Program-made: the position numbers and the translations under genes
Shown: positions 33,841 to 63,990 of the stretch, piece after piece
Numbering within the stretch: the stretch's first letter is position 1
How the letters are laid out: every line of letters starts with the position of its first letter
DNA from: Spiroplasma sp.
GTDB taxonomy: Bacteria > Bacillota_I > Bacilli_A > Mycoplasmatales > MT37
Length of the DNA stretch: 64,000 bases
NCBI GenBank assembly: GCA_965226525.1
Contig: OZ245361.1
Location: 468,938-532,937, forward strand
Reading direction: 5' to 3'
The notes under the pieces: model-generated
Seen by the model: the letters and a program-made list of their open reading frames with translations, nothing else
Databases searched by the model: none
What the model was told of the DNA's origin: nothing

Positions 33841-34050
33841 ATGAGTACTATGAAAGAGTTTTTAAAACTGGAACCAAAAAAACTTCAGGAGAAGTTACAG
33901 GAGTTGAAAGGCAGACTTTTTGTTTTAAGATTTCAGATTGCCAATGGTAAAACCAATAAATACAGTGATGTGAGAAAATTAAAAGTCCAAATTGCTCAGG
34001 TTCTTACCATTTTTAATCAGTACCAAGTGAAGAAAAAGGTTGCTTCCTAG
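33841..34050 (+). CDS. rpmC: 50S ribosomal protein L29
   Basis: EFLKLEPKKLQEKLQELKGRLFVLRFQIANGKTNKYSDVRKLKVQIAQV. Confidence 0.9.
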   Translation: MSTMKEFLKLEPKKLQEKLQELKGRLFVLRFQIANGKTNKYSDVRKLKVQIAQVLTIFNQYQVKKKVAS

Positions 34051-34087
34051 TTTGTTAATTTTGGAGTTTACAACTAATTAAAAGTTA

Positions 34088-36949
34088 ATGAAGAAAAGTG
34101 TTGTTAAAAACAAGATAATTAAGACCAACCAAAGCATGACCAGACTCATGAATAGGAAGAAAAGTGCTGTTAAAAACAAGACAATTAAGACTATTTCTTG
34201 AACAAAGAGGTTAAAAGATCGATTTCTTTTTTTCCTAACCCCTAAAATTTCTGATAGGTTATCTGCTTTTTTGGAATATTGAAGTAGTTTAAAACCTTTA
34301 CTTTCTAAGATAAAAATATTGAATTTAGACCTTGATAAAGAAGATTTTTGAAAAAAAACAGGTTTAAATTGAAAAAGAAATGTTAATGTTGAAGGTGATT
34401 TGACACAACAGACTTTACTTGAGATTAAAAATAATCAAAAAATGATTATCAAAATTGCTGATAATTTGGATCAGAGTTTGTTACAAAAACTCTTGTCTTC
34501 TAAGGTAGATCAACACTTGCAAATGATTCAACCTTTACTTGCAGATGTTCAAATTTTTACACCATTGAACAACCTGTCAATTTGGCAAAACACAGGTTTA
34601 GTCTGGTCTGAAGATTTTGATAAAAAAGGAAAGATTAAGGAACACAAAATGGGCATTCTTTTAGAAGAAAATAATGCCAAATTTTTTTTAGCTATTTTTG
34701 AGATCCAACCTACTTTCTTGCTTGGTTTTCTTTTCCAACAGATTTTTCACCATTGAGAAGTAGTGAGAAGTGATTTTTGCAGGATTAAAAAAATTTTTTT
34801 TCCTTCTGATGATGATTTGATTTTTTGATCCCATTTTGAATTAAAAAAATCTTTTTTTGACAGTAATTGTTGTTTAAAGAAGGAAGATTATCTTCTACCA
34901 CTTTTGCAAAAAAGAAAGGTTGATTTGTTAAAAATTAAAGCAGTTAATGAAGTTAAGGTTCAACAGTTTGTTCTGAAAACAGTATTGAAATCTTGAATTA
35001 AAAACTCTTCACTGTTACAAAAAATCAAAAGTTTGAATCTCAGTCTTAGTTCAGAAATGAAGTGGAACAACTCTGGTCTGAATTTAGTTTATGATTTTAC
35101 TGAAGCAGGAAAATTCAGCAAGGAAGGTGAAAAAAAAATTGGTAAATATAAGACTGGTCAGTTATTAAAAATTCACTATGATTTTACTCCACATTTTTTT
35201 ATTGGTTTTTTAAAAAAACAGATTTTAAATCATTGAAAAATTCTGCAAAATTATCTCCAGAAGTTAATAAAGATTGATAGTTCTTTTTTTCAAGACAGTG
35301 GTTGAATCAGTTTGGAAATAGACATAAAAAGAGATCTTGATTCTAATTGGTTTTTTAGACCTTTGACAGATGAAAAAATTTATTCTTGAAAAACAAACAG
35401 TTTGTATCATTTTTTTAACTTGAATGCTAGTTTTTTAAGTAAAAAAATTATTGATGGAATTGAAATTCATTGAGATAAAATTTCTGTACCTTTACAAAAG
35501 GTTTTGATTTTTGATAAACAAAAGTTTATTGATTTACCAGTTTGAAAACAAACTGGTCTCAAGATTGAAACTGATTTGCAAGAAAATTGCAAATTGTTTT
35601 TTTCTGTTTTAAGGGATGTTGCTAATTTTTCTCTAGAGCAAATCTTGGCAATTAAAAAAATTAATGTTGTTTTTTTAAAGAAATTTTTTTTAGATGTTTT
35701 TCGTCAACACTGAAAGAATTTAGTTCCTGTTTTTAAAGTTGCTAAAAGTAGGAATTGTAATCTTTCTAATCAAGATTTTTGGTTTTTAACTAACCTGAGT
35801 TGAGAAACTGATCTGCAAGCTGATGGTTGATTAACTGCAAATACTATGGAAACTATTTTAAATAAGACAATTAAACAAATAACTGCAATTAAAAATCTAG
35901 ATGCTGTTAGTGTCAGAGAATTTTTGAATGTTTTTTCAGAAAGAAAAACAGAGTTAAGTGTTGCTAAAACAGGTAAAAAATTAGTGGTATCTAGTTTTTG
36001 ATCAAAGGTGAAAAGTTTTTTTGGTTTTCGAGAAAAAAAGCAACGTTCTATTCAAAATCGTTTAGAAAATAGTGTAAGTTTGAACAGTTTAGATCTGCAT
36101 AAAACCATTAAGAATCTTAATGATTATAAAAAAAGGATTACTACTTTGAAAAATCTACGAAAAGATTATTCTAATTCAATTATTAGTGATCAAGACATTG
36201 TTGCTACAGGGGTAGTAGGTATTCAACCTAAACGTTTTATTGCAGAACTTGAAGGTGTGACAAAATATTTTTTAACTGGCAACAGTCTCAGTCAAGTTAT
36301 TCAAAAAACTTATCTGAAGATTAAAACTGGTGATTTTGTTGTTGTTTTAGGTCCATCAGGAGCTGGTAAAAGCACCCTTTTGAATTTGATTTCAGGAATT
36401 GATAGTCCTGATGGTGGTGATTTATTTGTGGATGGCATCAATTTAACTTTGCTTGATGAAGCTGGTTTGACTGACTTTCGTCGTAAATACATTGGTTTTG
36501 TTTTTCAACAGTATAACTTATTGCAAAATTTAACAGCAGGAGAAAACGTTGATGTAGTGGCTACTCTTTTGCCTGAGGAAAAGGAACCATTGAATATGAA
36601 AGAAATTTTTCAACTCTTAGGTATAGAAACCCTTTTGGATAAATATCCATTTCAACTTTCTGGTGGTCAACAACAAAGGTTTTCTATTGCCAGAGCACTG
36701 GCAAAAAATCCTGATATTCTCTTTTGTGATGAACCTACTGGAGCATTAGACCAAGAAATGTCCAAAAAAGTAATGCAGATTCTTTTTAAAATCAACCAAA
36801 AGTATGGAACAACAATTATTCTGGTCACTCATAATCAAATTTTTTCTCAAATTGCTAAGACAGTTTTTCATTTTATTAATGGTAAAGTGGTTAAGATTTT
36901 AGAGAACAAAAAACAGTTAGAACCTAAAGACATTAGTTTTCAATACTAG
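34088..36949 (+). CDS. 953-codon ORF: about 640 aa of novel Trp-rich tandem-module N-terminal region in frame with a MacB/LolD-type ABC transporter ATP-binding domain
   Basis: I checked codon by codon and found no TAA or TAG in frame from ATG 34088 to TAG 36947-36949. Track ORFs 34400, 35033 and 36008 all lie in this frame, separated only by TGA. C-terminal motifs: GPSGAGKSTLLN (Walker A), LSGGQQQR (signature) and ILFCDEPTGALD (Walker B). The ATPase could also initiate internally at GTG 36008. Confidence 0.75.
34090..34191 (+). repeat. Direct repeat of 36 nt (2 mismatches), copies at 34090-34125 and 34156-34191, offset 66 nt in frame
   Basis: GAAGAAAAGTGTTGTTAAAAACAAGATAATTAAGAC versus GAAGAAAAGTGCTGTTAAAAACAAGACAATTAAGAC. 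The copies encode KKSVVKNKIIKT and KKSAVKNKTIKT at the N-terminus of the large ORF. Confidence 0.9.
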
Positions 36950-36963
36950 TTTATTTTAATTTG

Positions 36964-38442
36964 ATGACATCTGAACAATTAGTGCGTTTTAAAAAGTTGG
37001 AAAAATTAATTTCTAATCAACAAAATCCCTTTTTTAATTATTTTTTGCCTCGCAATCAGATTGGCAACTTATTGAAGTTTAATCATTTGACTAGAGAAGA
37101 AATTTTTCAAAAAAAAGCAAAAATAAACTGCCAAATTGCTGGTCGTCTTTTGCAAATTCGTAATTTTGGTAATTTAATTTTTGCTAAAATTGTTGATGCT
37201 ACTGGAGAAATTCAAATTTTAGTAGATAAGAAAAGAAGCGGAGACAATCTTTTAAGGCAGTTTATGGATTATGATCGGGGTGATATTATTGCCCTGAAGA
37301 AGGCAGAATTGATGAAAAGTAACTCTAATGAATTAACAATTTTGGTTTTTTCTGTAGTTTTACTGGTTAAAAGTTTACAAACCTTTCCAGAAAAATATCA
37401 CGGTTTAGTTGATACTGAAATTTGTTATCGTCAACGTTATTTAGATTTGTTGTTAAACAAAAATGTTCGCAATGTTTTCCAAAAAAGGTCACAAATTGTT
37501 CAAGAAATTAGAAATTTTCTTAACTGCAAAAAGTTTCTGGAGGTAGAAACACCAGTTCTTCACCCTGTTTTAGGAGGGGCTGCTGCCACTCCATTTCAGA
37601 CTTTTCACAATGCTTTAAAAACACCTTTTTATCTACGTATAGCGCCTGAGTTATACCTTAAGCAATTAATTGTGGGTGGTTTGGAAAAAGTTTATGAAAT
37701 AGGTCGGTTGTTTCGTAATGAAGGCATTTCTTCCAAACACAATCCTGAATTTAGTGCTATTGAAATTTATCAAGCTTATGGCAATATGAAAACAATGATG
37801 GAATTGGCAGAACAACTTTTGTCTCATCTTAGTCAAAAGTTGTTTCAAAAATATGATTTTTTGTACCAGAACCAAAGAATTAGTTTTCAACCTCCTTTTA
37901 AAAAAGTAAAAATGTTGGATTTAGTTTTTTCTGTTACTGGATTTGATTTTAGAAAGATTACCACTTTAGAGGTTGCTATTCAGGTTGCTAAAAAACTAAA
38001 AATAGTTGTTTTACCTTATCAAAAAACAATTGGTCATATTTTAAATTTAGTTTTTGAAAAACATTGTCAAGAACAGTTGATCCAACCAACTTTTGTTTAT
38101 CAATATCCCATCGAAGTTTCTCCCTTTGCTAAACAGTTGAGTTCTGATTCTCAATACACAGAAAGGTTTGAACTTTTTATCGCTGGTCAAGAAGTGGCTA
38201 ATGCTTTTTCTGAGTTAAATGATCCACAAGAACAAAAAAGAAGGTTGGAAGCACAATTGAAAGAAAGAAAATTAGGAAATGTTGAAACAAATGAAATTGA
38301 TCAAGATTATCTTTTGGCTTTGCACTATGGTTTGCCACCAACAGGTGGGATTGGTTTAGGCATTGATCGATTGGTAATGCTTTTGACTAATCAAAGCAAC
38401 ATTCGAGATGTTATTCTTTTTCCTACCCTTAAAAGAAAGTAG
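36964..38442 (+). CDS. lysS: Lysine--tRNA ligase (class II)
   Basis: YRQRYLDLL, FLEVETPVL, FRNEGISSKHNPEFSAIEIYQAY and GGIGLGIDRLVMLLT. Start is ATG 36964 (TTG 36961 is an alternative). Confidence 0.95.
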   Translation: MTSEQLVRFKKLEKLISNQQNPFFNYFLPRNQIGNLLKFNHLTREEIFQKKAKINCQIAGRLLQIRNFGNLIFAKIVDATGEIQILVDKKRSGDNLLRQFMDYDRGDIIALKKAELMKSNSNELTILVFSVVLLVKSLQTFPEKYHGLVDTEICYRQRYLDLLLNKNVRNVFQKRSQIVQEIRNFLNCKKFLEVETPVLHPVLGGAAATPFQTFHNALKTPFYLRIAPELYLKQLIVGGLEKVYEIGRLFRNEGISSKHNPEFSAIEIYQAYGNMKTMMELAEQLLSHLSQKLFQKYDFLYQNQRISFQPPFKKVKMLDLVFSVTGFDFRKITTLEVAIQVAKKLKIVVLPYQKTIGHILNLVFEKHCQEQLIQPTFVYQYPIEVSPFAKQLSSDSQYTERFELFIAGQEVANAFSELNDPQEQKRRLEAQLKERKLGNVETNEIDQDYLLALHYGLPPTGGIGLGIDRLVMLLTNQSNIRDVILFPTLKRK

Positions 38443-38478
38443 AAGATGTTTTTAATCTCCTTTAATGAGGGTTCTTTA

Positions 38479-38487
38479 TGTTAAAAT
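38479..38487 (+). promoter_or_regulatory. Extended -10 element TGTTAAAAT upstream of rpsQ; an internal promoter restarting the spc cluster after the insertion
   Basis: TGnTAAAAT lies 12 nt before the rpsQ ATG. No SD sequence is evident in between. Confidence 0.45.
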
Positions 38488-38499
38488 TTATCTGTTTGT

Positions 38500-38883
38500 A
38501 TGAATTCTAAGGTTTTGTTAGTTCAGGAACAATCAACAAGGTTTATTCCTCCCAAAAAGAAGAAATTTACTTTGGTTGGTAAAGTAGTTCAAAATGTTTT
38601 GGATAAAACAGCCACAGTTGAAGTTGTTAGAAAATTTCGACACTCTGTTTATCAAAAAACTGTTTTTAGAACAAAGAAATATTTAGTTCATGATCCTGAT
38701 AACAAAATGAATTTAGGTGATCAGGTCTTAATTGCTAATACCAAAAAAATTTCTCTGAGAAAAAGTTTTTTTTTGGTGAAGATTTTGAAAAAAAGTACTT
38801 TTATTTCAGATGGCAAGGAGAAACCAGCAAAGGATACTGGCAGCACTTTTTCAGATGATTCTGGTATGAAAAAAACACTTTAA
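38500..38883 (+). CDS. rpsQ: 30S ribosomal protein S17 with N- and C-terminal extensions
   Basis: [56 protein letters not shown]. Confidence 0.9.
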
Positions 38884-51906: not shown

Positions 51907-51983
51907 GGGACTATAGCTCAGATGGTTAGAGCACACGGTTTATAACCGTGAGGTCTTGGGTTCAATTCCCAATGGTCCCACCA
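51907..51983 (+). tRNA. tRNA-Ile, anticodon UAU (reads AUA); CCA is encoded
   Basis: Manual cloverleaf. Acceptor GGGACTA/TGGTCCC. D-stem GCTC/GAGC. Anticodon stem CACGG/CCGTG with loop TT-TAT-AA. T-arm TTGGG-TTCAATT-CCCAA. Discriminator A followed by CCA. Confidence 0.85.
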
Positions 51984-52003: not shown

Positions 52004-52579
52004 ATGTCTATATTGAGAGAAAAAGAAGTTTTTTTAAGGAACAGAGTTTGAAAGATCAGAGCAATTGTTAATGCAGCATGTTTGATTAGTTTTTGACCAG
52101 TTTTAGCAGTTTGTACTCTGCCTTTTCGTTTTTTATTTATAGAAGCACAAATCCCTTTTTTCTTTTTTTTGATTTGATTTATTGGTTTAACTCACAAATC
52201 ATTACCTGCCTTTTTAATTGCATTTTTGGGTCATTTTTTTTTTGATTTAATTTTTTTTTTAAATCCTTTTTTCTTTTTTCTCTGAATTGCTTCTGGTTTG
52301 ATTTCAGCATTAATTGCTTTTTTTAAAAATTATTGAAAAGTTTTATTTTTTTTAGCATTACTTTTACCTTTTTTCTATTTTTTGTCTTTTTTTATAATTA
52401 GTCTGATTATTTTTTCTAGATCAAATTTTTGAAATTATTTTCTTAGTTTTCCACAAACAACATTTGTCATAGTTTTTATCAATCCCTTCTTTAGTTTTTT
52501 AGTTTATTTTACTTTTTTTTACAATCCAAGTTTAAGATGATTAGTTTTATCGTTCAGGGAGAAAAATAATGAAAGATAA
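52004..52579 (+). CDS. Integral membrane protein (191 aa), function unknown
   Basis: A continuous code-4 ORF with 7 TGA codons, checked codon by codon. Very hydrophobic and Phe-rich. It contains two T10 tracts (52234-52243 and 52251-52260). Confidence 0.5.
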
Positions 52580-55112
52580 AGGGATAGTTTTAGCACCAGT
52601 ATCAAGTAGAATTTTTGCTCGTTTATTTGATCTTTTTCTTTTTCTGGCAGTTTTAGTTATTTCCTTTTGAACACTAGAAAATAACTTAAATGATCATCCT
52701 GTTTTAGTGAATTTAGTAGTTAATTTAATTGCCTTTATTTTTTTTCTTATTTATTTTGTTTTTATTCCTTATTTTTTTGCTAATCAAACTTTAGGAAAAA
52801 AACTTTGGTCAATAAAAATATTTTTTTCTCTAAAACCAAAGGGTTGAATACTTTTTGTTAAGTTGTTTTTTCGTGAGTTTTATATTATGTTTGCTCCTAT
52901 TTTTTTGACCTGGTTGTTTTATGGTCTTTATGTTTTGTTGATTAAATTTTTTTTAGGAAGATCCATTCTTCAGATTGATTTTTTAACCCGGACTAGTGTT
53001 GTTTTTCTCCTCTGATGAATTTTTCTCTTTTTATTTGTTAAAATTGAACCTAAACACCAACTGTTTTATGATCGTTGACTAGGTGTTTTAGTTGTTAAAA
53101 GTACTGGTAGAGAATTAATAATGGTTAAAAAGAAGTTGATTGTTCAGAAAAAAAAACAGATTGATTTAAGTTTTGGTGTTAATGAATTTGAGAAGATGGA
53201 TTTTTTTTTGAATTCAGAACAAAAGAAAGCAGTTTTTACTGCTAAAGATTTTAATTTAAGGATTATTGCTGGACCAGGAACAGGTAAAACCACAGTTTTA
53301 ATTAATCGTATTATCTTTTTTTTGAAAAAACACCATTATTTATCTCACCAGATTTTGGTCTTAACTTTTAGTAGAAAAGCATGCCAGCACATTAAAAAAA
53401 GAATAGAGAAAAGTGTAGTTGCTAATTCTCTTACTAGCTGATCAGTTTTTACTTATCATGGTTTTTGTTATTGGTTTCTCACAGTAATTAAAAGACAAAG
53501 AATTACAGTTTTAGATCAATCTGATCAAAAACAAGTTATTAAGCATTTACTTGCGCAGGATCAAAAACAAACACAAAAAAAAATTGATAAAACCTTAATA
53601 AAGGAGGTTTTGGAAACAATAAATGTTTTACAACAAGAAATGGTGAATGATTTTTCTACTTTTGAACAAAAAGAGTTTGAGTCAGATTTTTTTAGTGGTC
53701 TAGATTTAACTAAAAAAAAGCAACTTTGAAAACTATATGAAAACTATCTTCTTTACAAAAAAAAGGAGCAGTTGTTTGATTTCAGTGATCTTTTGACAAA
53801 AACATATCAGGTGTTACAAGAAGATAAAAAACTTTTAAGACAATTACAACAAAGATTTCTGCATTTAGCAGTTGATGAGTTTCAAGATGTTAATTTTTTA
53901 CAGTATGCATTGATTAATTTGATAAGTGGTTCAGGCAAACTAATTAAAACTACAGTTGTAGGTGATCCAGACCAAACTATTTATGGTTGAAGAGGTTCTA
54001 ACATTGATTTTATTTTGAATTTTCACAATGATTTTTCCAATCTGCAAACAGTTAAGTTGATTACTAATTATCGTTCTCAAAAAAACATTGTTAGTTTAGC
54101 AAACCATTTAATTACTAAAAATAAAAAAAGAATCACTAAAAAAATTACTGCTGTTGAAAAAGTTATGGATAAAATTGTTTTATTTTCAGGTGCCTCTAAT
54201 TTTCAAAGCGCTCATTTTATTGTAAAGGAGATTGAAAGAAAGGTATCTTCAGGGGTTAGGCACAAAAATATTGCTGTTTTATACAGAGCAAACTATTTAT
54301 CAGGTATTTTGGAAACCCTCCTTTTGCCTAAAAACATTCCTTATCACATCTTCAAAGGGCAGGAATTTTTTAAAAGAAAAGAGATTAAGGATCTTTTGCT
54401 GTTACTAATTGTTTTGGTTGAACCAAAAGATGTTTATTTACAAATAGTTTTAACCTGAATAAAGGGAATTGGAGAAAAAATTATTTTTAAAATTCAAAAA
54501 GAGGCAGCATCTGTTAATAAAACTATTTTTCAATACCTATTAGCAAATCAACCTTCTTTTTTAGTTAAAAGTTGAAAGGAGATTGAATATTTTTTGAATG
54601 TCATTCAAGGTTTGCAACAAAAACTTTCTGAAATACAATCCCTGAAAGTTTTGCTTCAAGAGTTGTTCACCAAAATTTATCAACCAATTCTTTCAAATAA
54701 TCTGGATTATGAACAAAGACTTAAAAATGTTGATGTCTTAATTCAACAAGTTGTTGATGGTTTTGAGAAAACTAATCTTGATCTTTCAATTCAAGATAAG
54801 ATCAGCAAGTTTTTATCACACAGTCAGTTGTTTGCTGCCAGTGAAATTAGTTTTGAAGCAGAATCTGTTCAATTAATGACAATTCATAATGCTAAGGGTT
54901 TGGAGTTTGATTATGTTTTTATTTTTGATGTTTCAGGCAATAACTTTCCTAATCAAGACCGATTGAACATTGATTTAGAAGAAGAGCGCCGTCTTTTTTT
55001 TGTAGCTATTACAAGGGCTAAAAAAGGTGTTTTTATCACTACTAACTCTTACAATCCTTCTGTTTTTATTGAAGAAATTGCTAATTGTTCAGCAGTAAAA
55101 CAATGAAGATAA
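52569..55112 (+). CDS. RDD-family membrane domain (about 184 aa) in frame with a UvrD/PcrA-type superfamily-1 DNA helicase
   Basis: There is no TAA or TAG from ATG 52569 to TAA 55110-55112. RDD hallmarks are SSRIFARLFDLFLF... and ...LFYDRWLGVLVVK. Helicase motifs are GPGTGKTT, VDEFQDVN, VVGDPDQTIYGWRGS, TNYRSQ, TIHNAKGLEFD and VAITRAK. The helicase alone could start at ATG 53121. Confidence 0.8.
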
Positions 55113-57380: not shown

Positions 57381-59315
57381 TTAATTTTCAAATGCTGAAT
57401 TAATGAATGCTTTTCAGTAGTACTTTTTATAGTTTTTTTGTTTTCAAAATGTTATTAAACTTTCTGTTTCTGCCTTTGTTGTTCAAATGTAATTAATTTT
57501 TTTGGTCTCACTGGGAGAAGTTAAGTATAAAACATTTGCTTCTGTTTCATTTATTTTTGAAGTATTTAGTTTTTCTTGATTGTTTGCAAACATAATTTCA
57601 TTACAAATGTAGTTTTGAATTGGATTGTTTGCAAAAGATTTTTGGTTAGTTGTTATCAAAAACACTCCTGCTAAACCACCTAATTGCATAATTTTAATTG
57701 TTTTTTCTGTGATTTGACTTTGATAAATTAGGATGAGATGGACCAAATTATCAATTATTAAAACAATAAAAGGCATTTTTTTTGCTTGTGGTTTTTCTTG
57801 ATTAAATTTTGTAATATCAGAAACATTAGCATGAGCAAACATAGTAAGTCTTTTTTTAATTTCAGCAATTATTTGCTCCAACATTGTTACTACTAATTTG
57901 TTGTTTTCTACAATTGGCGCTAGTAAATGAGGAATACTTTCAAAAATGTCTAATTTGGTTTTTTTGTGGTTGATGATTAAGAGTTTAAGAGTTGTTGGTG
58001 TGTGTTTATAAATCAAACTACTAATGATGGTTTTTAAACATTGATCTTTTTTTTCATTTTGGTTTTCATCAATGAATATGTGAAATATTTTATTTAATTC
58101 TACTTTAGCAATCTCTTTTAGAGAGTTTTGCCCAATTGCTAACATCAATTTATTTTTGTCATCAGGTATTTTTTTAACAACTTCGCTTCATTGATTTATT
58201 GGATTAATAAAATCATTAGTTGGTGTTTTTTCTTCAGGTGTATTTTGTTTATCTTTTTGTAGGTTGCTAAATAAGTCTGGACTGGGTAATTTTTCTATCA
58301 TTTCATCTTTATTATTTTCTGACTTTCTTTTATCTTCATCTGATAACTCTATTTCAGTTTTAACTATTCAGTCTAAGAATTTTTCATCTGTAGTAGCACT
58401 TTGCCAGTTTGGGTTGCTGTTTACTTTTTGTTTTTGTTCCAGATCTACTTCTATTTTTTGGACTGAATTTGTTTCTGTTTGTTTCAGGGGGGATTCTTGG
58501 TGTTTTTGCTTAATTTGATTAACATTAACTTCTTTTTTTTCTCTGTCTTGAATTTGAATTTTTCTTGCTGTTTGCAACTCAATTGTGAAATCTTGATTTT
58601 CAACTTCATTAAAGATACTGACATTCATTTGGTTTTGCCTGTTTTCATTCAGATTTTGTCACCTAATTTTATTTCTTTTTTGCTGAGAGAGAAAGTAAAA
58701 TCAAACTGAGTTATGCCTTATGTAACTAGTTAGCAAAAATCAACTAAAAAAGTTAAACAACAAAGCAACAAATACTGAAAGAAAACAGGAAATACTAGCA
58801 ACACTTATTCCTAAAATACCACCACTGTCAAAAACTTGGGAAAAAGAGTAGTGATACCTAAAAAAGTCTTGAGCATCAACAATCACATACTCATAAATAC
58901 TGCTATCTAACCATTTCTGAGCATATTTAGGCACTAAACTTGTTGTTAGATAAGCAAAATAATTGGTAAATTCACCATTTTCAACATTTCAAATAATTAC
59001 TCCAACTAATCCTAAAAATCAATAAAAATTAAAAATGATCCAAAATGATTTAATTAAGGTTGTTTTTTTAATTTTTTCAGTGTTAAACTTTATTCCTCTT
59101 GCCTTCCTGATTAAAAGTAAAATGACTAGAATATAGATTACATACTTTGTTCAACCAAAAAGAAAACGAAAAATATCATCAATACCTTGACCAACAATAC
59201 TGAATCTACCCAAACCTAAAAGCAGGAGAATAAAGCAACAAATCCAGAGCAGAACTTTTAAAGTAATTAACCTAGTTTCTTTTGGTATAGCAAGTTTGTT
59301 TATTTTTTCTTTCAT
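57381..59315 (-). CDS. FtsK/SpoIIIE-family protein with an N-terminal membrane domain and a motor domain whose Walker A and B motifs are degenerate
   Basis: Three track ORFs on the minus strand share one frame, and it extends through TGA to TAA (TTA on + at 57381-57383). It is collinear with the SpoIIIE motor (IPHLLAPIV, MPFIVLIIDNLVHLI, AGVFLITTNQKS), but the P-loop position reads IDENQNEKKDQ. Confidence 0.75.
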
Positions 59316-61040: not shown

Positions 61041-61131
61041 TGACAAGGTTAAGAATCACTTTTTAACTATCTATAATATTATATTGGGAACTTGTCTGTA
61101 ATGGGGCAGGGATTTTGTTTTGTTTTTTTGT

Positions 61132-63990
61132 ATGAATAAATCAGGAATAATTTGAAAACTATCTAAGTATATTTTTGGTGTCTTGCTTTTTAAGAATTTT
61201 TACAAGTATGCTCTTATTTTACTTTCTGTTTTGTTCTCTACTTCAATTTTGTTACCAATTTTACAAGCAGAGTGAATGTCTTTTACAAAGAATGAAGAGA
61301 TTGTGCAAAAGAGCAACAACTTTGATTTTTATTTTCAATTGCCAAATAGAAAAAGATTTTTGAAGTTAAAACAGGAGTCAGGTGACAAACTAGTTGGTTT
61401 TGAATCTGTCCATGATGTTGTTGATAAAATTGTTCAGAAGAAAAAGCAGAGTTATGAATTTAGTTCCCTTTTGGTTTATAAAGCTAATTTAATTGATTTT
61501 GAGGATAAGAAGTTTTTTTCTATTGAAACTTCTGCTTTTGCTGAAAAGGCAGATCCAGAAAGCATCAACAAAGTTGTTTTAACAGCAGGCAGAGAGCCTG
61601 CTAAAGGATCCAATTCAGAAGTAGTCATAAATTCTAAATTTGCTAAAAAAAACAAAATTCTTTTAGGTCAAGAGATTGAAGTTGTTGATTTGACTTTTGT
61701 TGTTGTTGGTTTTGCTGATGCAGCAAATAATTTGTCATTGAATTTTCAAACTACAATGAAGGTTGAACAAAGTCTTGGTATTGATAAGAAAGAGGATGAT
61801 CTTTATTATCATTATGGAATCTTTTATGTTAATGAAGAGTCATTTTTGAACATTTATAAATTGAAGAAGTTTAATAATTTTGAAAACATCTTATACTTGA
61901 AATTTCCTCCAGAGGTAAATTTGCAAGCAAAAAAAAATGATTTTTTAATTGCCATTCAAAAAGAAATAAATTATGATCCTAAGGTAGTTTTTTTTCAATC
62001 TGATTTATCTTCAGGTTTGAAAAAGTTTCTTATTACTTTTGAGATTTATATTTTGATAGTGGTTTACTTTTTGATCTTTAGTTTTTTACTTTTTTGATTG
62101 TGTTTTTTAAATCTTTCTGCTTACAAAAAGGAAAAAAAATTTAGATTACTTGTTAATACTTTTGGTTTCTCTCATTTTTTAATTGCTCTATCCTTTTTTT
62201 TGATTAATTTTTTTGCTTTGTTTTTGATCTCAATTGGTGGTTTTTTCTTTACCGCCCCACTAAGTGACTATTTTTTTTCTTACAATGACCAACTTTCTTT
62301 CTTATCATTTGAAGTTGTTGTTTTTTACTGGGAATTTTTTTTGATCCAAATTGTTCTTTTTCCTCTTCTTTGAGCTTTATTTTCTAGTTTCTTTCTTTTT
62401 TACAAGATGAAGGATAAAAATTTACTTTACTCTTGACAGGGTGATAAAAGACTTTTTAATTATGAAAATACAGACACTTTTTTTTACAGAATTGGTTGAA
62501 AGAAACTACCTTTTTGATTTTTTTCTTCTCCCAAAATAAAGGTGTTTTTGTTGTTTGTTTTCCAAGATTTTGGCAAAAAAATACTTTTGCTTGGTTCTAA
62601 TATTTTGTTTTTTGTTTTCTTTTTTTTGCTGGTTTTTACCAAAGTTTCTAGCAGTAATTTTATTGATAATCAGTGAAGTTTTTTGAACAAGGATGTAAAA
62701 AGTTTTACTAAACTGTCTGATCACATCTCAATAGATCAAAATAATCTCTTAAAAAGTGAAGTAGATTTTGTCTCTGAGCAGAATTTAAATGAGCAAAATT
62801 TACAAAAAATTTCTAGTCTAGATCAGTTGAATTTAAAAAAAACTGGTTGTATTTTTTCAGCACAAAGGAGAGATGATTTACTGGCATGTGGTTTGCAAAA
62901 ACAATTTATTGATCAAAGCATTGAATCTACTAAACTTAGAAAATATATGCAACAATTTGGTATTGAAAAGATTTATTTCAATAATGTTCCTTATCAAAAA
63001 GAGAAAGAGATACTGGTTTTAGTTGGAAAAGTAAATAATCAAAATTTAAGCAGTGAGATTTATTTTATGCCTGCCAAGTGACCAGATTATTTTCAAATAA
63101 CAGATTTAGAATCAAAAGTTAATGATTTTCAGTTTCAAGCTAATGGTAAATTAGGTACTGATTCTGCTGGTTTTCAATATGTTTTAGTGCCAGAGCATTG
63201 GAAGAAAAAAGGTTATAAACTGAATGATTTGATCACTTTTAACAACATTAGTTTTGATTGGTTGCTTTTATCTCAGCAGGTAAAATTCAGAATTGCCGGC
63301 TTTATTTCAAATGACAAATTAATTCGTAATACTTTATTCACTGATTATGATTATCTTTTGCAAGAAAAGATAGTTTCTTCAACAACACCAGAACAAAAAA
63401 AACCCTACAATTTTATTTTTTCAGCTACAGAAAAAAAACATTTAAAAAAATACTTGGTTTTGAATTTAAATAAGGTTGATATTGAAAAGTTGTCAGTTTT
63501 TCAACAGGACCAGAATTTTGATCTTAATTTTTTTTCTTTTACAAATTTAGAATCTCTTACTCTTTCTGAGTTTTACAATTTATCTAATTTCCATCTGGAA
63601 ATTTATCAAATTTATTTCCTTTTTTTGATTGCTTTTAGTGCATTGTTTCTTTTCTTTCTGCTGCTAATATTTCTTAATACTGCCTTTAGCAGTCACAATA
63701 AAATTGCTACTAACTTGGTTGTTTTTGGTTATCATTTCAAGGAATCTCTCTGAGGTTTTTCTCTAGTTACAATTGCTTGTCTTTTGTTGGGTTTTTTAAT
63801 TGCTTTTCTTTTAGCTTTTGCTCTGTTTATTTTTTTGAGCAATTTTTTTGCAACAGTCAACATCTATCTGTTTGCTGTTAACATCTGAGATTACTTTTTT
63901 TATGGTTTAGGAGCAGTTTTATTTGTCTTTCTAGTTACCCTTTTTTATAATTTTAGTTATCCAAAAAAGAGTAAAATAAAGGCAAGGTAA
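61132..63990 (+). CDS. Large ABC-transporter permease of the FtsX/MacB type (952 aa, duplicated architecture)
   Basis: Four track ORFs share one frame joined by TGA, and the 62373-62683 gap was checked codon by codon. It has an N-terminal TM segment, a MacB-like extracytoplasmic domain (VVLTAGREPAKGSNSEVVINSKFAKKNKILLGQEIEVVDLTFVVVGFAD), a TM cluster, a second large loop and a C-terminal TM cluster. TAA stop at 63988-63990. Confidence 0.8.

Follow-up and report, generated by a model that had tools for sequence, protein, structure and literature searches.

The window analyzed here, a 64,000-nt stretch of Spiroplasma sp. DNA (assembly GCA_965226525.1, contig OZ245361.1, positions 468,938 to 532,937 of the forward strand), contains at positions 34088–36949 (+) a gene in which a tandem-repeat domain of about 640 amino acids (aa) is joined in frame to a MacB-type ATP-binding cassette (ABC) ATPase. 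We hold with high confidence that this stretch is coding and represents a real fusion of a new domain to an ABC ATPase, whose predicted product is one cytoplasmic protein of ~110 kDa. What is new is the repeat domain; the ATPase itself is of a familiar, ordinary kind.

One reading frame spans both domains

The window has a GC content of 30%, and TGA is read as tryptophan (translation table 4). Under this code, 34088–36949 forms a single open reading frame (ORF) of 953 codons, from ATG 34088 to the stop codon at 36947–36949, with 16 in-frame TGA codons (all inside aa 1–638) and no TAA or TAG, as the initial annotation had described. Since an in-frame TAA lies directly upstream (34079–34081), ATG 34088 is the earliest possible start. 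The frame had also been judged very unlikely to stay open by chance, and the estimates agree: from local composition, the probability of 953 codons without TAA or TAG is ~10^-28.8, i.e., about 10^-29, and among 2000 shuffles no stop-free run exceeded 164 codons. Codon usage in the repeat-encoding part (34088–36007) gave a log-likelihood of 0.34 in frame, compared to 0.23–0.49 for bona fide window genes (ribosomal and housekeeping) and ≤0.11 for the remaining five frames of the same segment. At the 17 alignment columns in which at least three of four long-form orthologues carry tryptophan, six mix TGA and TGG between orthologues, so that the reading of TGA as tryptophan is directly shown for this gene. 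Tryptophan makes up 2.9% of the residues in the repeat region vs. 1.2% in other window proteins.

A copy of the gene from the same species, encoding a 99% identical protein (P0001), lies on a 364-kb ENA contig (L001). The two genes differ at nine positions (five synonymous, four non-synonymous), too few for a ratio of non-synonymous to synonymous substitution rates, and the other pairs of orthologues are saturated. Elsewhere, L001 loses register with the window upstream of ~33088 (about 24–33 kb) and at 40.1–41.1 kb, and its rpsC call is split in two. Indels in L001 or errors of its long-read assembly probably explain these differences.

A tandem array of seven units

Autocorrelation of BLOSUM scores along the N-terminal region peaked at lags of 79/80, 159/160, 239, and 318 (z = 4.6–6.1), i.e., a period of 80 aa, which is also the period of the orthologue P0002 (921 aa, encoded on a 306-kb Tara scaffold). 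Seven full units of ~80 aa each, R1 to R7, occupy aa 78–640 and can be aligned almost gap-free (Table 1). They are preceded by a half unit, to which a hidden Markov model (HMM) of the unit gives a weak match (aa 27–77 to HMM positions 34–78) and in which a helix is predicted at aa 57–77. When HMMs were trained on six positions and used to score the seventh, scores ranged from 16 to 55 bits, while the top-scoring decoy among 2000 shuffled sequences in each test had 10–14 bits. The “at least three modules” of the initial annotation thus become seven tandem 80-aa units and a half unit. The motifs it had quoted were all found (FWKKTGLNW, IWQNTGLVW, KWNNSGLNL, VWKQTGLKI, FLFQQIFHHW, FLKKQILNHW, FLDVFRQHW, and FIAELEGVTKYF): its W-x-x-[TS]-G-L motifs mark where R1, R2, R4, and R6 begin, and its F-L-x-x-Q-x-x-H-W elements where the long helices of R2, R4, and R6 end. 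The unit consensus reads …F-W-x-x-T-x-L-x-W-x-x-D-Φ-x-x-x-G-x-L…Φ-x-x-I-x-x-L-N-x-x-x-L…H-W-x-x-Φ-x-P-Φ-Φ-x-K-Φ. No other ORF of the window contained the unit when searched with the unit HMM.

The repeat region is basic in all orthologues (isoelectric point, pI, 9.5–9.8), all of which also have a basic N-terminal tail; in the window protein, the first 37 residues carry a net charge of +12. The 5′ end of the gene contains a 69-nt tandem duplication (34088–34156 vs. 34157–34225; MKKSVVKNKIIKT… then KKSAVKNKTIKT…), and the start of the P0002 orthologue corresponds to its second copy. Neither a transmembrane segment nor a signal peptide was found in the N-terminal region. Membrane insertion of the repeats was considered for the sole hydrophobic stretch, aa 199–217, and rejected: its maximum 19-residue hydropathy is 1.56, it contains Glu, Gln, and Pro, and its P0002 counterpart is visibly less hydrophobic.

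The initial annotation had recognized no family in the N-terminal 640 aa, and HMMER and profile searches likewise identified none, with no significant match for aa 1–715 in Pfam, NCBIfam, PHROGs, PADLOC, or PDB sequences. Pfam repeat families did not match the repeat region even at E-values up to 1, and the RNA-binding families of Pfam gave no match in the N-terminal region. A defence or phage origin was rejected, the PADLOC and PHROGs searches being empty. Among 1.84 billion protein-cluster representatives searched by phmmer with the N-terminal 715 aa, two proteins only were retrieved, P0001 and P0002. A profile of 28 units returned nothing from the protein collection, P0001 included, and is considered uninformative rather than counted as a negative. 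At the DNA level, a first degenerate motif for R7 had 0 matches in GTDB genomes and was too strict (it requires D-L, while Candidatus Thalassoplasma has D-I); a relaxed R7 motif matched JGI metagenomes once, by chance, on a contig of 61% GC. On this evidence, the repeat is a new, orphan family that appears to have arisen through internal duplication while the genome was shrinking. It has so far been seen, judging from these searches, only in mollicutes associated with marine invertebrates; one of the source runs, SRR19658988, stems from a study of Trichodesmium colonies (PMC9950141).

Predicted structure of the unit

An AlphaFold2 model of R6–R7, built from an alignment of eight rows (two-unit segments of P0001 and P0002), was all-helical, with a mean predicted local distance difference test score (pLDDT) of 83.7 and a predicted template modelling score of 0.69. 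Each modelled unit starts with two to three short helices that include the first Trp, followed by a beta-bridge hairpin at D-x-x-x-G-x-L, one or two further short helices, and a helix of ~23–28 residues ending at H-W. Foldseek found no neighbour for this fold in the PDB (best E = 2.5, TM-score ≤0.22). The model of the whole N-terminal region, for which the alignment had two rows, had an overall pLDDT of 54, with aa 1–47 predicted disordered; it repeats the same unit architecture in R1–R4 (pLDDT 65–86). Foldseek matches of this low-confidence whole-array model were treated as meaningless. Tandem helical units with a conserved hydrophobic and aromatic core and constant copy number are likewise found in TPR, HEAT/ARM, ankyrin, Sel1, spectrin, and annexin repeats, from which the present unit differs by its 80-aa length, its small beta-bridge hairpin (D-x-x-x-G-x-L), and its single ~28-residue helix.

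An intact ATPase domain behind a shared basic junction

The assignment of the C-terminal part to a MacB-type ABC ATPase held up in both Pfam and NCBIfam, with matches of MacB/LolD/FtsE type. Specifically, aa 719–945 form an intact ABC ATPase: ABC_tran (PF00005) matches aa 741–884 with an E-value of 9e-31 (107.7 bits vs. a cutoff of 25), and the top seven NCBIfam families, all at 168–178 bits and ~1e-50 over aa 719–943, include DevA, a bacteriocin exporter, MacB, DarD, LolD, and FtsE. The protein belongs to no named equivalog, its scores being far below every equivalog cutoff (MacB 174 vs. 966, LolD 170 vs. 308, and FtsE 168 vs. 265 bits). The Walker A (GPSGAGKST), Q-loop (FVFQQYNLL), signature (LSGGQQQR), Walker B (ILFCDEPT, with the catalytic Glu), and H-loop (LVTHN) motifs are all intact and have equivalents in three orthologues, and the nucleotide-binding domain (NBD) is predicted to be catalytically intact. 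The protein thus shares its best profile matches and all ABC motifs with the NBDs of MacB, LolD, FtsE, and DevA (type VII); we know of none of these with a large N-terminal repeat domain.

A Lys-rich linker before the ATPase had been pointed out in the initial annotation. A basic stretch is present there, but it is not novel: the junction is common to the orthologues of 300–540 aa from Spiroplasma, Mesoplasma, and the mycoides group. The NBDs of Mollicutes MacB-type ATPases that are paired with giant FtsX permeases (e.g., Spiroplasma syrphidicola, 309 aa, CP005078; Mycoplasma capricolum, 345 aa; Candidatus Oceanoplasma callogorgiae, 301 aa) are orthologous to that of the window protein, with 47–56% identity over the query, and these proteins share with it the basic junction motif, the Lys-rich N-terminal tip, and the ATPase–lysS linkage. 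However, upstream of the junction these proteins, like the Spiroplasma, Mesoplasma, and mycoides-group orthologues in general, have nothing but a low-complexity Lys/Ala/Glu tail, 60–320 aa in length; none contains the repeat, and the unit HMM does not match them, whereas the window protein has ~600 aa of repeats, predicted to be folded, between tail and junction, and its permease gene is no longer adjacent.

Long and short forms across marine mollicutes

The long form was identified in at least five diverged lineages, i.e., the window, the Tara scaffold, two Logan assemblies, and Candidatus Thalassoplasma callogorgiae. The one-frame fusion proposed in the initial annotation is conserved and nearly gap-free in the four complete orthologues, and the fifth is partly visible. 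P0002 as a whole is 45% identical to the window protein, the 926-column alignment containing 5 gaps; identity amounts to 22–45% for single repeats, 48% for the junction, and 72% for the ATPase, and 16 of 21 tryptophans are retained. All four complete long forms align colinearly, their seven units sharing one register, with identities of 26–39% in the repeats and 55–77% in the ATPase, the repeats evolving ~2× as fast as the ATPase domain. The number of columns invariant among the four orthologues is highest in R7 (19), R6 (15), and R1 (11). Lysyl-tRNA synthetases (LysS) of these lineages, whose genomes span 390–450 kb, are only 57–65% identical. Together, these alignments show seven units whose register has been maintained through genus-level divergence among Oceanoplasmataceae-like marine mollicutes.

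With junction and ATPase as query, the nearest relatives were listed as only 289–351 aa long. Two of these, P0003 (63% identity over the query) and P0004, are truncations of long forms produced under table 11: under table 4, their loci encode 936 aa (L003) and 922 aa (L004) with the full array and 18 and 22 TGA codons, respectively. At these loci (L003:8060–10870 and L004:2281–5049), table-11 calls consist of “ATPases” of 289 and 316 aa and ~2-kb gaps that look non-coding. Because table-11 calling splits this TGA-rich gene, the family is under-counted in protein databases, where public sets list an ATPase of 289–316 aa. A clade-specific ATPase motif searched against GTDB genomes retrieved Ca. 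Thalassoplasma callogorgiae (JARVCM01), in which at least four units of a long form are visible before the locus edge, and four unrelated ABC genes of Solirubrobacterales. The motif PF[QE]LSGG[QE]QQRF.IARA occurs once in the window, once in each of loci L001–L008, and also in L009 (Thalassoplasma).

Gene order is rpsJ…rplP-rpmC-[ATPase]-lysS-rpsQ-rplN… in all loci (ATPase gene in brackets). In this same slot, identical to that of the window, Candidatus Oceanoplasma callogorgiae (CP125803, a genome of 446,099 bp; PMC11535214) carries a 301-aa short form, and a coral-metagenome lineage (L005) a 351-aa short form in which the array is represented just by the “W-x-FFF” element that ends R7. In a species tree from five proteins (1043 columns), the long forms fell into two well-supported clades, the window with L002 and L003 (99.5%) and L004 with Thalassoplasma (99%); under midpoint rooting, Oceanoplasma was outermost and the position of L005 received 41%, leaving it unresolved. 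The simplest reading would be one gain of the array after the split from the Oceanoplasma lineage, in which case L005 would be a sister lineage or have lost the array secondarily.

Throughout the clade (window 33841–38883; L001–L009), the genes for the ABC ATPase and LysS split the S10/spc ribosomal-protein operon, sitting between rpmC and rpsQ. In Spiroplasma syrphidicola, a block comprises the orthologous 309-aa ATPase, an FtsX permease (1114 aa), dus, and lysS, from which it follows that the ATPase–lysS linkage is ancestral and that the natural partner of the ATPase would be a giant FtsX permease. Because this block sits elsewhere, the ATPase–lysS fragment appears to have moved into the S10/spc operon without the permease and dus genes, which stayed behind.

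Possible function and alternative explanations

In type VII ABC systems (MacB, LolCDE, and FtsEX), two NBDs dimerize on ATP and drive changes in the FtsX-type transmembrane domain and in extracytoplasmic domains. We lean slightly towards an overall picture in which two copies of the fusion protein would energize a giant double-FtsX permease, probably encoded by the ORF that begins at 61120, through a mechanotransmission cycle as in MacB-type (type VII) systems, and the array would serve as a cytoplasmic docking or regulatory arm. By hydropathy, this ORF has twice the topology of one transmembrane segment, a loop of ~260 aa, and three transmembrane segments, and it shows weak similarity to MacB_PCD (E = 0.0014) and to the Spiroplasma FtsX permease whose gene adjoins that of the orthologous ATPase (24% identity, E = 0.01). 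The seven-unit array has the Lys-rich tail on one side and the junction on the other, in a region that in Spiroplasma-clade orthologues consists of no more than a low-complexity or disordered tail. It might form a rigid, basic arm projecting into the cytoplasm that docks or regulates something, with a partner protein, the cytoplasmic face of the permease, and the acidic membrane as candidates. Taken by itself, a scaffold or regulatory role of the array is a more tentative proposal. Conservation is strongest in the two units nearest the junction, R6 and R7, which hints that they may contact the NBD or the permease. That the unit is a new fold and the array a dedicated adaptor, coupling a MacB-type transporter to translation and the ribosome, a cytoskeletal element, or symbiosis-specific cargo, we consider doubtful.

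Several points weigh against the overall picture of an ATPase serving this permease. The candidate permease lies 24 kb from the ATPase gene, not adjacent to it, and its similarity to FtsX is weak (E ~0.01). The view is limited to 64 kb of a ~400-kb genome, in which other pairings of ATPases and permeases are possible. The whole-array model is poor past R4 (pLDDT <50), and the AlphaFold2 alignment of R6–R7 is shallow, its rows coming from the protein’s own repeats. Finally, Oceanoplasma and the one coral-metagenome lineage have short forms, and therefore the array is not essential for the core job of the ATPase.

The protein could instead be a soluble, non-transport ABC protein whose basic array binds RNA, ribosomes, or the translation machinery, consistent with the location of its gene between rpmC and lysS–rpsQ in every examined locus, with the lack of an adjacent permease, and with the strongly basic N-terminal region of all orthologues. 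However, array-less short forms share the slot, and an FtsX permease lies between ATPase and lysS in the Spiroplasma linkage; operon position therefore predates the array and is uninformative about it. As the NBD is also ~50% identical to transporter NBDs with adjacent FtsX permeases, and no RNA-binding family was matched, we find a soluble role unlikely. Even less probable, in our assessment, is the presence of two products, i.e., a 35-kDa ATPase started internally near GTG 36008 and a repeat region made as a separate or additional protein. A GTG does exist at 36008, and table-11 gene callers yield such short models for L003 and L004, but these models are artefacts of TGA being read as a stop. 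The separate ATPase that the initial annotation had envisaged from this GTG finds no counterpart in the four orthologues, in which Leu or Phe codons stand at the aligned position and a conserved internal ATG is likewise absent. Nor does a stop lie before the position equivalent to 36008, or otherwise separate the two parts, in any of the five lineages, and no promoter or terminator signal rose above background at the locus.

A repeat region without function, as a neutrally expanded or decaying in-frame insertion, would fit with the existence of short forms and the ~2× faster evolution of the repeats. It is very improbable given that ~1.9 kb has stayed open and colinear, with constant copy number, among lineages as far apart as their LysS identities indicate and in such small genomes, with 16 of the 21 tryptophans conserved, gene-like codon usage, and a confident AlphaFold2 fold. 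A role directed at the host, with villin-headpiece-like or otherwise host-directed (e.g., actin-binding) units exposed to it, is suggested by a Pfam VHP match (PF02209; E = 0.0035, 17.7 bits) at aa 470–497 (…DLPVWKQTGLK…). This match falls under the 27-bit cutoff and occurs in one of four orthologues, and villin HP67, at 5.3 bits, was outscored by shuffled decoys (up to 11.6 bits) on the 28-junction family HMM, so that the match was rejected as a chance one-unit hit. With the absence of a signal peptide or transmembrane segment and the fusion to a cytoplasmic NBD, we give host exposure hardly any credence.

Feature coordinates and other observations in the window

Table 1 Coordinates of the fusion gene, its parts, and associated genes in the window
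Feature	Position	Strand	Evidence and remarks
Whole coding sequence, 953-aa fusion protein	34088..36949	+	Table 4; near-identical 953-aa protein P0001 on ENA contig L001
N-terminal tail, aa 1-37, Lys-rich and basic (net charge +12), predicted disordered	34088..34198	+	pLDDT ~30
Half unit, aa 38-77, resembling C-terminal long-helix part of repeat (…EYWSSLKPLLSKIKILN)	34199..34318	+	Weak unit-HMM match
R1, aa 78-157, FWKKTGLNW	34319..34558	+	Unit HMM 73 bits; leave-one-out 40 bits
R2, aa 158-237, IWQNTGLVW … FLFQQIFHHW	34559..34798	+	Unit HMM 72 bits; leave-one-out 45 bits
R3, aa 238-316, most degenerate (FWSHFELKK … LKSW)	34799..35035	+	Unit HMM 47 bits; leave-one-out 20 vs. best decoy 13 bits
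R4, aa 317-396, KWNNSGLNL … FLKKQILNHW	35036..35275	+	Unit HMM 67 bits; leave-one-out 33 bits
R5, aa 397-476	35276..35515	+	Unit HMM 70 bits; leave-one-out 38 bits
R6, aa 477-556, VWKQTGLKI … FLDVFRQHW	35516..35755	+	Unit HMM 77 bits; AlphaFold2 pLDDT ~90
R7, aa 557-640, best-conserved unit between orthologues (QDFWFLTNLSWETDLQADG), insertion before last Trp helix	35756..36007	+	Unit HMM 62 bits; 19 invariant columns in four orthologues; AlphaFold2 model
Basic junction, aa 641-718 (…LKNLRKDYSNSIISDQDIV…P)	36008..36241	+	Common to short-form and Spiroplasma-clade orthologues; relatives cover 82-97% of query starting at aa 639
MacB/LolD/FtsE-type ABC ATPase domain, aa 719-953	36242..36946	+	Pfam ABC_tran 9e-31; NCBIfam DevA, MacB, LolD ~1e-50
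rpmC (ribosomal protein L29), upstream neighbour	33841..34050, approximate	+	Translation; Pfam L29 at same position in all loci
lysS (class II lysyl-tRNA synthetase), downstream neighbour	36961..38442	+	tRNA-synt_2 2e-88; synteny
rpsQ	38500-38883		Follows lysS
Giant permease, doubled FtsX/MacB topology, candidate partner	61120..63990, runs off window end	+	MacB_PCD E = 0.0014; hydropathy; Spiroplasma FtsX permease 24%

Three further loci of the window were recorded. An 847-aa ORF at 52569–55112 (+) combines an N-terminal RDD membrane domain (aa 9–171; 32.6 bits vs. a cutoff of 24.1) with a complete UvrD/PcrA helicase; a membrane-anchored superfamily 1 helicase is an unusual architecture. A tRNA-Ile gene lies at 51907–51983 (+), and because this tRNA carries the anticodon UAU, it suggests that AUA decoding may bypass the usual lysidine (tilS) route, as it does in a few other Mollicutes. 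A 644-aa protein encoded at 57381–59315 (−) has N-terminal transmembrane segments and matches FtsK/SpoIIIE over aa 382–543 only (74 bits), i.e., it is a much-reduced FtsK-like protein.

Implications

Oceanoplasmataceae-like mollicutes have genomes of 390–450 kb with ~360 genes (PMC11535214). At this size, nearly every kept kilobase is expected to matter, and ~1.9 kb goes to an orphan domain. The fusion gene offers a tractable case of domain invention by internal duplication during genome shrinkage, for which nature provides a comparison, as the long-form Thalassoplasma and the short-form Oceanoplasma share one coral host. If the array were indeed a dedicated adaptor, a near-minimal cell would be spending ~0.5% of its genome on a new regulatory layer of an ABC transporter, and this would be taking place among the smallest free-standing bacterial genomes known.

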